Sequence record: NC_054925.1
Reading direction: 5' to 3' (one strand)
Length of the DNA: 64,000 nt
DNA from: Escherichia phage vB_EcoM_NBG2
Positions 8,188 through 12,497 of the stretch are shown here, piece after piece; the stretch's first letter is position 1; the number at the start of each line of letters is the position of its first letter. The position numbers and the translations under genes are program-made. Below the pieces are notes generated by a model. The model saw only the letters and a program-made list of their open reading frames with translations. It did not search any database and was not told the DNA's origin.

Positions 8188-8206
8188 AAAGGGGCCGAAG
8201 CCCCTT
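8188..8206 (-). terminator. terminator-like hairpin downstream of hoc
   Basis: GGGGC-UUCG-GCCCC on the minus transcript followed by a U-rich run (UUUCUUCAUUUU). Confidence 0.6.
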
Positions 8207-8210
8207 ATGA

Positions 8211-9629
8211 TTATGGATAGGTATAGATGATACCAGTTTCTAAAGCAGTTTTATGAATGATGTATCCATTACGCGATTCTTGGACATCAACTTCTGGATA
8301 GTCTTTAATCATCTTCTGAAGAGTGTAACGATGCAGGTAGTATTTACTATCTGGGTCGTCAGTTTTCCAATCTTTACCTTCTTCGGTCATTTTTTGGATT
8401 TCATCCATAACCCACCAACCGCACCAGATATAAGCTGAAGTACGATGTGGAAGAGGATGAACATAAGGTAGTTCACCTTCTGGTTCCGGAGCAACTTTAT
8501 CAGTCACTTGAACTTGACCTGTGGCTTTAACTGTTTTACTATCATAGTCAGTTGCTGTAACGACAGCAGTAACTTCAATAGTTTGACTTCCAATAGATGA
8601 GGTATCAACAGTATATACGTTAGTTGACCCTTCCACAGGAGAAGAATCTTTCTTCCATGAGTAAGTAATTTGTGCTGCTTCAGGTGCGCCATTAACATTA
8701 GCAGTAAATGTAGCCGAAGCATCTTGCTGAACATTAATAGAAGGAGGAGTCAATGTAACCTGTGGATTCATTGTCTTCTTATTAACTGTCAATGATACTT
8801 CATTGGAAGTAACTTCCTTTTCATTATAATTTTCTGCAGTTACTTGGGCTACGCATTTAATTCTTTTTACTCCACTTGTAGTTGGAGTATAGTTAAATGT
8901 AGAGTTAGTTTCTCCACCAACTTGTGAATCATCTACATACCACTGATACGTAGCAGACGCTCCGTCAGGTTGAGAAGCTAATGCAGCAGTAAATTGAACC
9001 GGGGTTCCAATTACTCCAGCAGCAGGACTAGCAGGAGTTACTGCCAAGGTAGTTGTCTGTGTCTTTTTATTAACTGTCAATGATACTTCATTGGAAGTAA
9101 CGCTCAGTGCATCATAATCTGTCGCAGTTACTTGAGCTACACACTTAATTTTTTTAACTCCGCTTGTAGTAGGAGTATAATTGAATGTAGCAGAAGTTGC
9201 TTCGCTCACAGGAGAACCGTCAACGTACCATTGATACGTAGCAGATGCGCCCGATGGCTGTGAAGCTAAGGCAGCAGTAAATTCAACGGCTGTTCCGATT
9301 ACTCCTTCTGGAGGACTATTAGGAGTTACAGCTAAAGTAGTTGTCTGTGTTTTATTTTGAACTGTAATAGTTGTACTAATTTCAGCTGTTTCAGCTTCAG
9401 AATCAGGAATAGTATTTGTTGCAACTACCTTAATAGTCTTTTGACCAGCAGGTCCTTTTAATACATAATTAAAAGTTGCTTCAGCTCCATCTTGTGGAAC
9501 ATCATCTACAGTCCAAGCATATGTAATAGGTCCATCTCCAGTTTGACCACTGGGTGTAGCAGTAAACTGCTTAGTTTCATCAATAACCCCTGTCGGTGTT
9601 TTAGGAGTTATATCAACTGTAAAAGCCAT
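8211..9629 (-). CDS. hoc: head outer capsid protein Hoc, 472 aa, with an extra Ig-like domain
   Basis: Ig-like repeats plus C-terminal capsid-binding region; T4 Hoc recalled as 376 aa; contains an internal near-identical 96-aa duplication. Confidence 0.85.
   Translation of the reverse strand: MAFTVDITPKTPTGVIDETKQFTATPSGQTGDGPITYAWTVDDVPQDGAEATFNYVLKGPAGQKTIKVVATNTIPDSEAETAEISTTITVQNKTQTTTLAVTPNSPPEGVIGTAVEFTAALASQPSGASATYQWYVDGSPVSEATSATFNYTPTTSGVKKIKCVAQVTATDYDALSVTSNEVSLTVNKKTQTTTLAVTPASPAAGVIGTPVQFTAALASQPDGASATYQWYVDDSQVGGETNSTFNYTPTTSGVKRIKCVAQVTAENYNEKEVTSNEVSLTVNKKTMNPQVTLTPPSINVQQDASATFTANVNGAPEAAQITYSWKKDSSPVEGSTNVYTVDTSSIGSQTIEVTAVVTATDYDSKTVKATGQVQVTDKVAPEPEGELPYVHPLPHRTSAYIWCGWWVMDEIQKMTEEGKDWKTDDPDSKYYLHRYTLQKMIKDYPEVDVQESRNGYIIHKTALETGIIYTYP
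8778..9353 (-). repeat. tandem direct duplication (2 x 288 bp) inside hoc encoding two near-identical Ig-like domains
   Basis: Same 35-mer ttattaactgtcaatgatacttcattggaagtaac at about 8780 and 9068; protein residues about 93-188 and 189-284 nearly identical (unit boundaries approximate). Confidence 0.85.
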
Positions 9630-9638
9630 AAGTTATCC

Positions 9639-10319
9639 TTATTTTAATGTTACGAAAGAAGAATTGCGTGTTTCACGAATTAAAACCGATCCATCGCGAT
9701 TAATGTAATAAATTAAGCTAAATAAAGTTTGGTGTGCTGACGCATGCTCAAAACTTGTTGGGTGAGATTTCCAATCTGGAGTTTCAGCAATCCATTGATA
9801 AATCCACCAAGGAACAGTGCAGAATCCTGGATTTTTTCCAATCAGCTGAAGATTTGGGCTAAAGTTTTCTGGAAGAGTAAATACAGACGGCTTTTCAGAT
9901 TCAATAATCTCAGCTACAGCCTGTTCGAATTTTTCTTCAACAAAAGGAGTATCTTCAATTAAAACAGTGGTATTTTCAGGAATTTTATCCGTTTCTACTA
10001 CTTCAATTTTAATGTCAGATTTAACCGGAGAATCAATCAGAAGTGCTGCCTCTGGATTGACTTCTTCATCGTCATATTTTAATCCGTCTGCGGCATCAGC
10101 AGCATCAATTAAGTCTTTAATAGATAACCCATCAGTCTCTGGCATAGGTTCACTAGCGAGCTTCTGGAGAGCTTCTTCAATATCATTAACGATATTATCA
10201 AAAGATTTATTCTTTTTGACCTTTATACCAAACTGTTCAGCATATTCAGCTAATTTAGCTTTAGCTTCTTTATTATCATCAAGAGCCTTCAGCTCTGCAA
10301 TATAATCTTTATCTATCAT
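9639..10319 (-). CDS. inh: Inh, inhibitor of prohead protease
   Basis: 226 aa, synteny downstream of hoc, acidic head-associated protein. Confidence 0.8.
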   Translation of the reverse strand: MIDKDYIAELKALDDNKEAKAKLAEYAEQFGIKVKKNKSFDNIVNDIEEALQKLASEPMPETDGLSIKDLIDAADAADGLKYDDEEVNPEAALLIDSPVKSDIKIEVVETDKIPENTTVLIEDTPFVEEKFEQAVAEIIESEKPSVFTLPENFSPNLQLIGKNPGFCTVPWWIYQWIAETPDWKSHPTSFEHASAHQTLFSLIYYINRDGSVLIRETRNSSFVTLK

Positions 10320-10368: not shown

Positions 10369-10986
10369 ATGTACCACTTTGTATATGAAACAACAAATCT
10401 AATAAATGGTAAAAAGTATATAGGAAAGCACTCTACTGATGACTTGAATGATGGTTACCTTGGTTCCGGTAAGGCAATTCAGCAGGCTATAAAGAAATAT
10501 GGTGAAAACAATTTCTCTAGAACAATACTAAAAGAGTTTAAAACTTCCGAAGAAGCGTACATGTATGAAGAAGAAATTATAACTCCTGAACTAATAAAAA
10601 GCAAAAATTATTATAATATGAAACCTGGTGGAATTGGTGGAATTGTTATGACTACAGATGTTATAGCAAAGATGAAAGAATCTTCCGCTAAAAGATTTGA
10701 AAACTCACCGGGCACGGTATTAGGTAAAACTTGTTATACTAATGGAACTAAAAATATTTTTATTAAACCTGGAGAACTTGTTCCAGAAGGATTTGTAAAA
10801 GGGATGGTTCATCCTAATAGAAAGTCCAGAAAAGGATGTAAAGTCAAACCGACTACCACAGGAACTTTTTGGGTCAATAATGGCACAATAAATAAATTAA
10901 TACAACCAGACGGTATTATTCCCGACGGATTTATTAAAGGTCGTCTCATGAAAAGAGATTCTAAAGGCAAATTTAGTAAGGCATAA
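10369..10986 (+). CDS. segE: GIY-YIG homing endonuclease (SegE-like)
   Basis: N-terminal GIY-YIG module (VYETTNLINGKKYIGKHS), 205 aa, location immediately upstream of uvsW as for T4 segE. Confidence 0.8.
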   Translation: MYHFVYETTNLINGKKYIGKHSTDDLNDGYLGSGKAIQQAIKKYGENNFSRTILKEFKTSEEAYMYEEEIITPELIKSKNYYNMKPGGIGGIVMTTDVIAKMKESSAKRFENSPGTVLGKTCYTNGTKNIFIKPGELVPEGFVKGMVHPNRKSRKGCKVKPTTTGTFWVNNGTINKLIQPDGIIPDGFIKGRLMKRDSKGKFSKA

Positions 10987-10988
10987 TT

Positions 10989-12497
10989 ATGGATATTAAA
11001 GTACATTTTCACGACTTCAGTCATGTACGCATCGATTGTGAAGAGAGCACGTTCCACGAATTAAGAGATTTCTTTTCGTTTGAGGCCGATGGATATAGAT
11101 TTAATCCTCGCTTCAGATATGGCAACTGGGATGGACGAATCCGTCTTTTAGATTATAATCGCCTTCTTCCATTCGGTTTAGTCGGGCAAATTAAAAAGTT
11201 CTGTGATAACTTTGGCTATAAAGCCTGGATTGACCCGCAAATTAACGAAAAAGAAGAATTATCAAGAAAAGATTTTGATGAATGGCTTTCTAAATTAGAA
11301 ATCTATTCAGGAAATAAAAGAATTGAACCACACTGGTATCAAAAAGATGCAGTGTTCGAAGGATTAGTTAATCGTCGTAGAATTCTTAATCTTCCAACAT
11401 CCGCTGGTAAATCGTTAATTCAAGCTTTGCTTGCGCGATATTATTTGGAAAATTATGAAGGTAAAATTCTTATCATTGTTCCAACAACTGCTCTGACAAC
11501 TCAGATGGCTGATGACTTCGTCGACTATCGTTTATTCAGTCATGCAATGATAAAGAAAATTGGCGGCGGAGCATCAAAAGATGATAAATATAAAAATGAT
11601 GCACCAGTCGTTGTTGGTACATGGCAAACTGTAGTTAAACAACCGAAAGAATGGTTCTCACAGTTTGGAATGATGATGAATGATGAATGCCATCTTGCTA
11701 CAGGAAAAAGTATTTCATCTATCATATCAGGTTTAAATAACTGCATGTTCAAATTCGGTTTGTCTGGTTCATTACGTGATGGCAAAGCCAATATCATGCA
11801 GTATGTTGGAATGTTTGGTGAAATATTTAAGCCAGTAACGACTTCTAAATTAATGGAAGATGGACAAGTAACTGAGCTAAAAATTAATAGTATTTTTCTT
11901 CGCTATCCCGATGAGTTCACTACTAAATTAAAGGGAAAAACTTATCAAGAAGAAATAAAAATTATTACTGGGCTTAGTAAAAGAAATAAATGGATCGCTA
12001 AATTAGCTATTAAGCTTGCGCAAAAAGATGAAAACGCTTTTGTCATGTTTAAACATGTATCGCATGGTAAAGCTATTTTCGATTTAATTAAAAATGAATA
12101 CGATAAAGTTTATTACGTATCAGGGGAAGTTGATACCGAAACCCGCAATATAATGAAAACCTTAGCTGAAAATGGTAAAGGAATAATTATAGTAGCTAGT
12201 TATGGTGTATTTTCTACTGGTATTTCAGTTAAAAATCTGCATCACGTTGTTTTAGCGCACGGTGTTAAATCAAAAATCATTGTATTACAAACAATCGGTC
12301 GTGTATTACGTAAGCATGGTTCTAAGACAATAGCAACCGTCTGGGACCTCATAGATGATTGTGGCGTTAAGCCAAAATCTGCTAATACGAAAAAGAAATA
12401 CGTTCATTTGAACTATCTTTTAAAACACGGCATTGATCGTATTCAGCGCTACGCAGATGAAAAATTTAATTACGTAATGAAAACAGTTAATTTATAA
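10989..12497 (+). CDS. uvsW: UvsW RNA-DNA/DNA-DNA helicase
   Basis: 502 aa; SF2 helicase motifs (PTSAGKS Walker A, DECH box); sequence recognised as T4 UvsW. Confidence 0.95.
   Translation: MDIKVHFHDFSHVRIDCEESTFHELRDFFSFEADGYRFNPRFRYGNWDGRIRLLDYNRLLPFGLVGQIKKFCDNFGYKAWIDPQINEKEELSRKDFDEWLSKLEIYSGNKRIEPHWYQKDAVFEGLVNRRRILNLPTSAGKSLIQALLARYYLENYEGKILIIVPTTALTTQMADDFVDYRLFSHAMIKKIGGGASKDDKYKNDAPVVVGTWQTVVKQPKEWFSQFGMMMNDECHLATGKSISSIISGLNNCMFKFGLSGSLRDGKANIMQYVGMFGEIFKPVTTSKLMEDGQVTELKINSIFLRYPDEFTTKLKGKTYQEEIKIITGLSKRNKWIAKLAIKLAQKDENAFVMFKHVSHGKAIFDLIKNEYDKVYYVSGEVDTETRNIMKTLAENGKGIIIVASYGVFSTGISVKNLHHVVLAHGVKSKIIVLQTIGRVLRKHGSKTIATVWDLIDDCGVKPKSANTKKKYVHLNYLLKHGIDRIQRYADEKFNYVMKTVNL

Follow-up and report, generated by a model that had tools for sequence, protein, structure and literature searches.

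Hoc of the T4-type phages is a highly immunogenic outer capsid protein. It is a non-essential fibre, one monomer of which occupies the centre of each gp23 capsid hexamer, and infectivity does not depend on it. Variability in the number of Hoc domains is already published. The string of Ig domains varies among Hoc homologues (PMC10385173), and the 650 homologues described as Hoc-like proteins have up to 10 Ig domains, as in Serratia phage Muldoon (Fokine et al. 2023, PMC10385173). The C-terminal domain of Hoc, with its residues H299/R300, is assigned a capsid-binding role (PMC10385173), and the Ig domains of Hoc-like proteins are credited with mucin and fucose binding. In a related Hoc, an SLT motif has been reported as a MUC2/fucose-binding site; in phage PNJ-9, whose Hoc lacks domain 3, this site is SLT183-185 of domain 2 (PMC11853027). 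In contrast to PNJ-9, phage PNJ-6 is reported to bind MUC2 through domain 1 and not domain 2. For a tandem array of domain 2 (D2) in Tequatrovirus Hoc, a literature search returned general statements on variable domain number and no explicit description.

The window considered here is the whole analysed stretch of 64,000 nucleotides from Escherichia phage vB_EcoM_NBG2 (NC_054925.1). According to its list of open reading frames, it harbours an intact hoc gene on the minus strand that encodes 472 amino acids and a stop codon. The features of the locus, in the direction of transcription, are as follows.

8211..9629, minus strand: hoc coding sequence (ORF list; phmmer; DNA match to phage G2540-3)
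9354..9629, minus strand: Ig-like domain 1, residues 1-92 (phmmer to T4 Hoc 1-92; AlphaFold2 beta-sandwich)
9066..9353, minus strand: repeat unit 1, residues 93-188, a D2-type Ig/PKD-like domain (288-nt period, Pfam, AlphaFold2)
9067..9101, minus strand: 35-nt identical tract at the 3' end of unit 1, GTTACTTCCAATGAAGTATCATTGACAGTTAATAA, encoding VTSNEVSLTVNK
8778..9065, minus strand: repeat unit 2, residues 189-284, a D2-type Ig/PKD-like domain (288-nt period, Pfam, AlphaFold2)
8779..8813, minus strand: 35-nt identical tract at the 3' end of unit 2, partner of the tract at 9067..9101
8502..8777, minus strand: last Ig-like domain, residues 285-376, equivalent to T4 Hoc domain 3 (phmmer to T4 189-280; Pfam)
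8214..8501, minus strand: C-terminal capsid-binding domain, residues 377-472 (near-identical to T4 Hoc 281-376 by phmmer)
8189..8206, minus strand: intrinsic-terminator-like hairpin, AAGGGGCTTCGGCCCCTT followed by a T-run (terminator scan)

The identification of the gene as hoc is secure. The protein matches T4 Hoc (5vf3_Z) with E = 2.2e-217 in phmmer, and the gene occupies the conserved genomic position of hoc between inh and 24.3, the order inh-hoc-24.3-24.2-rnlB being that of the T4 annotation. As read from the sequence, the ATG start lies 9 nt 3' of the inh stop codon, with a Shine-Dalgarno-like AAGGA motif just upstream. The terminator-like hairpin lies 5 nt past the hoc stop codon, and the G2540-3 record has a terminator annotated at the matching position.

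The 472-residue protein consists of four Ig-like domains and the capsid-binding domain. AlphaFold2 models residues 1-376 as four beta-sandwich domains with a pLDDT of about 90, whereas the C-terminal domain is modelled with low confidence (pLDDT <50). Domain 1 is a beta-sandwich (pLDDT about 90) with 60% amino acid identity to domain 1 of RB69 Hoc. Pfam PKD and Ig families match both units. Unit 1 has Pfam matches to PKD, BiPBP_C and Ig_2 and strands at residues 99-187 (pLDDT >90); in unit 2, the best PKD stretch is 197-267 (pLDDT about 90). The last Ig-like domain matches Ig_3 and I-set at 289-374. The top Foldseek matches to the model are strings of four Ig domains (Dscam1, Sidekick, ICAM-5), and RB49 Hoc (3SHS) is matched with E = 5e-10. 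The N-terminal part is thus a linear Ig-like string by all three methods, which also agree that one entire Ig-like domain is present as two tandem copies in frame, as had been proposed from the sequence alone. In the phmmer alignment, window residues 1-103 pair with T4 1-103 and residues 189-472 with T4 93-376, so that unit 1 has no counterpart in T4 beyond residue 103, and H395 and R396 fall on the conserved H299 and R300 of the T4 C-terminal domain (281-376). The claim that this Hoc is one domain longer than that of T4 is borne out: 472 and 376 residues differ by exactly one 96-residue unit.

The preliminary description placed the two units correctly, at 9353..9066 (residues 93-188) and 9065..8778 (residues 189-284) on the minus strand and in frame. 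Each runs from KTQTTTLAVTP to SNEVSLTVNK, and Tandem Repeats Finder returns a period of 288 nt with 2.1 copies and 79% matches over 8772..9365. The description also called the units almost identical at the DNA level, a claim that does not survive the self-alignment it proposed as a check. The units agree at 226 of 288 nucleotides (78.5%, 62 differences) and at 76 of 96 residues (79%, 20 differences). This is far above chance, since codon shuffles give 89.6 +/- 7.5 matches (z = 18). With a dS of 0.75 and a dN of 0.14, dN/dS is 0.19, and purifying selection has kept both units. Their differences concentrate outside the beta-strands: 15 of the 45 positions that are not in a strand in both units differ, compared with 5 of the 51 that are (p = 0.006). 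The divergence is therefore biased towards loops.

The unit is found in 615 phage records, with 888 copies in total. In an evenly spaced sample of 60 of these records, 37 (~62%) have one unit, 20 (33%) have two, 2 (3%) have three and 1 (2%) has four. Among the best 120 protein clusters, Hoc is 376 residues long in 79, 472 in 29 and 567-570 in 9, and the Hoc of slur03 reaches 664 residues. The comparison of Hoc lengths across phages that had been suggested thus yields steps of 96 residues (376, 472, 568, 664). Alleles differ by whole units in a single register, from one to four copies, which is the behaviour of a variable cassette. The pair in the window is an ordinary allele of this known cassette, an old and common variant and not a recent event. 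The reading preferred here, with a probability of roughly 0.85, is that it represents an old in-frame tandem of domain 2, the common two-copy allele of a Tequatrovirus Hoc cassette with one to four copies.

Between phages, the unit sequences have undergone heavy shuffling. Where an array has two units, the first tends to carry unit-1 states (mean 0.79) and the second unit-2 states (unit-1 fraction 0.20), and in the module table the middle and C-terminal modules are both of the unit-1 state in 29 of 30 first units. Among single-unit alleles, all 8 module combinations are present. Mapping with the 62 diagnostic DNA sites locates a changeover between nt 219 and 231 of the single unit of phage T4_ev240, with unit-1 states before it and unit-2 states after it. 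Counted from the start of this unit, nucleotides 277-1131 of the gene show 13 mismatches in 855 nt to the window allele minus one unit. T4_ev240 thus provides a crossover product between neighbouring units, another mark of a variable cassette, and its domain 2 would be the chimera expected of an in-register unequal crossover in a window-like allele. In T4 itself, the order is reversed, with unit-2 states ahead of a changeover between nt 213 and 231 and unit-1 states beyond it, so that its domain 2 appears to be a unit-2/unit-1 chimera. If so, the 376-residue reference Hoc is probably derived and not ancestral. A chimera of this direction is impossible by a single deletion in an array of unit 1 followed by unit 2; a longer array or ordinary allelic recombination is needed. 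Chimera directions were also tried as a guide to the ancestral copy number. They did not settle the question, because single-unit alleles show every module combination and recombination among T-even phages is too frequent. The ancestral state may have been one unit, or it may have been two units with later losses.

The strongest rival of the old tandem is the possibility, judged rather improbable, that unequal recombination joined two diverged D2 alleles of different co-infecting phages into the array. The divergence of the units would then reflect the age of the alleles and not that of the junction, and a one-unit Hoc would be ancestral, with arrays assembled and dismantled repeatedly. T4-type phages have a very high recombination frequency, and the hybrid Tequatrovirus/RB69-type Hoc P0045 shows that hoc segments move between lineages. 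Besides the full set of module combinations among single-unit alleles, almost pure single units of both types occur, as this account would have it: type 1 in P0112 (protein) and, for the most part, in L011 (DNA), and type 2 in L009 and P0114. However, such pure alleles are equally explicable as deletions with a crossover at either unit end. Two alleles that reached a dS of 0.75 although their population recombines freely, at a locus whose flanks have a dS of up to 0.5, would in addition need balancing selection or import from outside. Nearly every array of two, three or four units preserves the succession of unit 1 and unit 2, which a single origin explains better than repeated assembly does.

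RB69 Hoc also has four Ig-like domains (471 residues), which raises the idea that units 1 and 2 are the orthologues of RB69 domains 2 and 3, made alike by later gene conversion, and that the duplication is older than the split of Tequatrovirus and Mosigvirus. There are signs of exchange between the units, and small motif echoes link RB69 domain 2 to unit 1 (VDG and TATDY) and domain 3 to unit 2 (DDS and NY..KE). However, units 1 and 2 have 53% and 54% identity to RB69 domain 2 and 39% each to domain 3, and such equal distances are what a duplication later than the split would leave. Orthology would further need complete conversion followed by fresh divergence, and is unlikely. A one-to-one pairing of the units with the middle domains of RB69 was accordingly rejected, both being co-orthologous to RB69 domain 2. 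These distances show that the pair arose within the Tequatrovirus lineage, since neither unit is closer than the other to the single RB69 domain 2.

The preliminary description further took high DNA identity to imply a recent duplication. A tandem private to the window phage with copies still nearly identical might be suggested by the perfectly in-register, in-frame period of 288 nt and by the identical unit ends, KTQTTTLAVTP and VTSNEVSLTVNK, the latter within the 35-nt identical tract. Such an event should leave near-identity at synonymous sites as well, but 62 of 288 nucleotides differ and only 60 of 96 third codon positions match. Neighbouring genes of the window and T4 have diverged with a dS of 0.04-0.18, and the unit-to-unit dS of 0.75 is 4-18 times as high; among Tequatroviruses, the other Hoc domains have dS values of 0-0.52. 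The pair is thus several-fold older than the divergence of the window phage from T4, although dS is only a rough clock here because of heavy recombination. Heavy recombination also blurs the distinction between paralogues within one array and alleles brought together. The arrangement is not restricted to this genome and its closest relatives: G2540-3 has exactly both units with 0 differences, each unit has diverged orthologues in AR1, ime09, slur03 and L008, and two units are present in about a third (~33%) of the 615 records. Units within one array of G2540-3, AR1, ime09, slur03 or L008 have 74-84% DNA identity to each other. The 52 within-array pairs from the best 120 protein clusters reach at most 82 of 96 identical residues (median 76 of 96) and include no recently duplicated units, and near-identical units were not found in any array examined. 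The reading of a recent duplication is refuted by the near-identity criterion that the preliminary description had itself set, and such an event private to this phage is highly improbable. Repeats are a classic source of assembly error, but a mis-assembled or falsely expanded repeat has a negligible probability, given the intact reading frame, the recurrence of the architecture across hundreds of phage genomes and metagenome contigs that were sequenced independently, and the ease with which reads tell the units apart because 62 sites differ.

Under the old-tandem reading, copy number and unit content would change by in-register homologous recombination, which would use the conserved unit boundaries with their 35-nt tract and internal tracts such as that encoding CVAQVTA. 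The 35-nt tract is the longest identical run shared by units 1 and 2 and a likely substrate for such recombination. Codons for the same amino acid differ at 1 of 12 positions in the tract and at 23 of 52 in the central part of the unit (Fisher p = 0.02), a modestly significant reduction in synonymous divergence that constraint could explain instead. The TVNK-KTQTTT boundaries are conserved in three- and four-unit Hoc too. In P0015 and P0025, the linker reads KSMNP/KKMNP.

Each added unit would contribute one more Ig domain, corresponding to about 4 nm of fibre, and would bring a second copy of the SLT motif, which is present in the window Hoc at residues 183-185 and 279-281. For the T4 fibre, a length of 18 nm is reported (PMC10385173). 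The extra domain and the second motif may change reach or glycan-binding valency. The three-domain Hoc in which the SLT site was mapped is encoded by a gene with only 65% DNA identity to T4 hoc. That a longer fibre would alter adhesion is plausible, and the idea has been discussed in general terms (PMC11150434, PMC10385173). A broader and tentative proposal is that the D2 array is a maintained polymorphism of length and valency, with one to four loop-diversified Ig modules whose three sub-modules are reshuffled by recombination, possibly aided by double-strand breaks from the adjacent homing endonuclease SegE, about 1-1.6 kb from the array. If this is true, fibre reach and glycan specificity would be tuned to differing mucosal or host surfaces, and the 376-residue T4 Hoc used in all structural work and all work on bacteriophage adherence to mucus (BAM) would be a derived, shortened chimera and not the typical form.

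Taken at face value, the window allele means little, since hundreds of phage genomes already contain it in annotated form. At least two D2 units occur in about 40% of sequenced Tequatrovirus-type phages, and therefore the T4 reference Hoc under-represents natural fibre lengths. This bears on BAM experiments, on the pharmacokinetics of phage therapy and on Hoc-display vaccine platforms. The natural allelic series of one to four units could serve to test fibre length and valency in mucin binding. The recognition of T4 domain 2 as a probable recombinant of two unit types is, like these two points, a modestly useful by-product.

Among known systems, bacterial surface adhesins whose tandem Ig-like or repeat domains vary in number offer a parallel: homologous recombination changes the repeat number in frame and with it the length of a surface projection. 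The likeness is by analogy only, with no homology claimed, and rapid variation of the slippage type is not expected in Hoc because its units are 21% diverged in DNA. Hoc-like proteins share with the window Hoc a C-terminal capsid anchor and a linear Ig-like string of variable number. A scan of IMG/VR yielded 21 loci, mostly from other genera, with independent gains and losses of domains. The last Ig domain is duplicated in L012 and L013, and a domain is lost in L018, as in PNJ-9, whereas in the window it is specifically domain 2 that is arrayed. T4 Hoc (NP_049793, 376 residues; PDB 5VF3 chain Z, 8T1X and others) shares the gene and the locus inh-hoc-24.3. Its domain 1 and last Ig domain are the same domains as in the window, its C-terminal domain differs at 2 of 96 aligned residues, and its domain 2 has 93% amino acid identity to unit 2 and 84% to unit 1; the window Hoc has one additional 96-residue D2-type Ig domain. 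UGKSEcP1 and OMNI12 (568 residues) and slur03 and slur14 (664 residues) have the cassette and 96-residue register of the window in more copies, with further unit-1/unit-2 chimeras as internal units. Hoc proteins of 472/474 residues are variously labelled Hoc, "PKD domain protein" or "capsid and scaffold protein". Those of G2540-3, G2133, PP01, AR1, ime09, BF15 and many other phages have an architecture identical to that of the window and differ from it by point differences and mosaic patches only, mostly in domain 1. The closest is hoc of G2540-3, with 98.2% DNA identity over the gene and both units identical.

The tandem pair of Ig-like domains in hoc is real but ordinary, and its earlier reading as recent is wrong. 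The window is a segment of a Tequatrovirus (T4-like) genome; over its first 25 kb it shares about 97% identity with several E. coli phages, P922 and KarlGJung among them. The gene order around hoc is that of the T4 annotation, with 24.3, 24.2, and rnlB coming after it. The features are as follows:

9639..10319, inh, which precedes hoc
8211..9629, minus strand, hoc, an intact ORF of 472 aa
9353..9066, minus strand, unit 1 of the repeat, aa 93-188 of Hoc
9065..8778, minus strand, unit 2 of the repeat, aa 189-284 of Hoc
8206..8189, terminator-like hairpin past the hoc stop codon

The protein satisfies each testable defining feature of Hoc. It matches T4 Hoc (5vf3_Z) with E = 2.2e-217 (phmmer, PDB sequences) in two colinear stretches, 1-103 to T4 1-103 and 189-472 to T4 93-376, and is therefore Hoc with exactly one additional 96-residue block. 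Hoc sequences of 472 aa nearly identical to it are already in GenBank.

Pfam matches along residues ~100-375 are to PKD, Ig_2, BiPBP_C, Ig_3, and I-set. An AlphaFold2 model built from 27 aligned 472-aa homologues contains four successive all-beta domains (pLDDT ~90 over residues 1-376), with units 1 and 2 superimposable in their strand patterns; its C-terminal domain is of poor quality (pLDDT < 50). The top Foldseek matches of the model in the PDB are four-Ig strings (Dscam1 Ig1-4, Sidekick Ig1-4, ICAM-5 D1-D4), and RB49 Hoc (3SHS) is matched with E = 5e-10. The unit boundaries are domain boundaries, and each unit is therefore one whole Ig-like domain of the T4 "domain 2" (D2) type, with 93% (unit 2) and 84% (unit 1) aa identity to T4 D2. 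The 20 aa differences between the units cluster outside the beta-strands, affecting 15/45 positions that lie outside a strand in both units and 5/51 that lie within one in both (Fisher p = 0.006).

Tandem Repeats Finder places 2.1 copies of a 288-nt period at 8772..9365, with 79% matches. Together with direct comparison of the units, this bears out the preliminary description of an in-frame repeat at 8778-9353 within a 472-aa Hoc. The units had also been called almost identical at the DNA level, yet their identity is 226/288 nt (78.5%) and 76/96 aa. Matches at the first, second, and third codon positions number 83, 83, and 60 of 96. The similarity is far beyond chance (89.6 +/- 7.5 matches in codon shuffles, z = 18), and the remaining pairings of Ig domains within hoc give just 55-64% identity.

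Between the units, dS is 0.75, dN 0.14, and dN/dS 0.19 (Nei-Gojobori). The dS between the window and T4 is much smaller in the neighbouring genes 24.2, uvsW, inh, and rnlB (0.04-0.18), and dS for the remaining Hoc domains, compared across ten Tequatrovirus hoc genes, is likewise smaller (0-0.52). The units within the arrays of AR1, ime09, slur03, and a further compared locus (L008) are equally diverged (74-84% DNA identity), and in 52 pairs of units from the same array, drawn from database proteins, a median of 76 and at most 82 of 96 residues are identical. Both units of phage G2540-3 are the same as those of the window, with 0 differences. Judged from these sequence comparisons, the duplication is an old one, and selection has maintained both copies.

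With unit 2 alone as the query, blastn found 888 unit copies in 615 phage records. Of 60 records sampled at regular intervals along the ranking, 37 carry one copy, 20 two, two three (OMNI12, UGKSEcP1), and one four (slur14). A full-gene search agrees: in a spread sample of its matches, records with a hoc of 1131 nt occur beside records in which it measures 1416-1425 nt. In a collection of 5.8 billion proteins, the best 120 Hoc clusters measure 376 aa (79), 472 aa (29), and 567-570 aa (9), and slur03 Hoc measures 664 aa. The lengths rise in steps of exactly 96 aa. The window allele, one D2 domain longer than T4 hoc (1131 nt, 376 aa, as the preliminary description had it), is therefore one of two major forms.

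The Hocs of slur03 (L006 31..2025) and slur14 have four D2-type units (664 aa), those of OMNI12 and UGKSEcP1 three (568 aa), and the internal units of all four are further chimeras of both unit types. The record of phage FriedrichMiescher (MZ501066.1) splits hoc into "capsid whiskers protein Hoc part 1 / part 2". Its match to the unit spans 289 nt instead of 288, which suggests an indel of 1 nt; either a frameshift in hoc or an error in sequencing may lie behind this. A 32-kb record, "Staphylococcus phage SAJK-IND" (MG010123.1), contains a two-unit T4-type hoc (91.8% identity) and is probably mislabelled or contaminated.

Units were scored at the 62 DNA or 20 protein sites that tell window unit 1 from unit 2. 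Where an array has two units, the unit 1 state predominates in the first (mean 0.79) and the unit 2 state in the second (unit 1 fraction 0.20). Single-unit alleles are mosaics: divided into sub-modules N (sites 12-24), M (46-55), and C (78-84), the 79 single-unit clusters include all eight combinations, the commonest being the 2-2-1 pattern of T4 (18/79). T4 D2 (L002 201..1331) is unit-2-like to about nt 213 and unit-1-like from nt 231; that of T4_ev240 (L001 1501..2631) is reciprocal, unit-1-like to nt 219 and unit-2-like from nt 231. Both switches fall within a conserved stretch, CVAQVTA (unit nt 213-231). If the units of a window-like array crossed over unequally but in register, the T4_ev240 pattern would be the expected product. 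Over its unit and all that follows (gene nt 277-1131), T4_ev240 hoc has only 13 mismatches in 855 nt to the window allele minus one unit.

Co-infecting phages might instead have recombined unequally and so joined two diverged alleles into the array. This would fit the existence of pure type-1 and pure type-2 single-unit alleles, but the 1-then-2 order conserved across arrays makes it the less probable reading; that order speaks for one old duplication, after which units were lost repeatedly and alleles recombined. It is unlikely that the units are orthologous to the second and third domains of RB69 and were homogenised later, as both are equally distant from these (53% and 54% identity to the second, 39% and 39% to the third). 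This equidistance places the duplication within the Tequatrovirus lineage, later than the Mosigvirus split. The previously proposed recent duplication, taken as private to this phage, is refuted by the divergence of the units, the age estimates, and the frequency of the two-unit form in other phages. An assembly artefact is excluded by the diverged units and their recurrence in independent genomes.

Copy number would change through homologous recombination between conserved tracts, amid the intense recombination that accompanies T-even replication. A 35-nt tract at the 3' end of each unit, the longest over which the two are identical, is a plausible substrate for in-register exchange; 1/12 of its codons and 23/52 of those in the middle of the unit diverge synonymously (p = 0.02). 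Some 1-1.6 kb from the array lies segE (10369..10986, plus strand, between inh and uvsW), a mobile GIY-YIG homing endonuclease gene absent from this site in T4_ev240. Its product is identical to T4 SegE at 204/205 aa (dS = 0), while its flanking genes differ from T4 (dS 0.04-0.18) and hoc much more so. Speculatively, segE could promote co-conversion in the D2 array. The adjacent uvsW ORF (10989..12497, plus strand) encodes 502 aa; RefSeq annotates T4 uvsW as 587 aa, noting that "sequence discrepancies were found for this section".

In other T4-like genera, IMG/VR loci reveal changes independent of the Tequatrovirus D2 array. The last Ig domain is tandemly duplicated in L012 (1201..2619; copies 59% identical in aa) and L013 (1201..2616), and the middle one is lost in L018 (1201..2049, 282 aa). 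L021 (115..2838) holds a 907-aa ORF ending in the Hoc C-terminal domain, by simple ORF extension. One protein (P0045, 567 aa) is a hybrid Hoc: it has domain 1 of the Tequatrovirus type, then one D2 unit, then two middle domains of the RB69 type. Segments of hoc are therefore exchanged between genera.

The 472-aa Hoc would assemble on capsids as T4 Hoc does, given its conserved anchor domain, in which H395 and R396 (T4 H299, R300) are retained, and it would reach one Ig domain beyond the 18-nm T4 fibre (PMC10385173). In phage PNJ-9, S183-L184-T185 in domain 2 of Hoc has been reported as a MUC2/fucose contact (PMC11853027). SLT is found in both window units (residues 183-185 and 279-281), and across the 27 aligned 472-aa Hocs T185 is almost invariant and the other five residues do not vary. 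A two-unit fibre may therefore present two putative mucin-binding (MUC2/fucose) sites. The literature is not uniform, since in phage PNJ-6 MUC2 is bound by domain 1, not domain 2 (PMC11150434).

In the literature searched, no explicit description of a D2 cassette of 1-4 copies or of a chimeric T4 D2 was found. Variation in Ig-like domain number among Hoc homologues has already been published, with up to 10 Ig domains among 650 homologues (Fokine et al. 2023, PMC10385173), and PNJ-9 Hoc differs in that domain 3 is absent (PMC11853027). The D2 copy series and the T4 D2 chimera are thus refinements of a known phenomenon.
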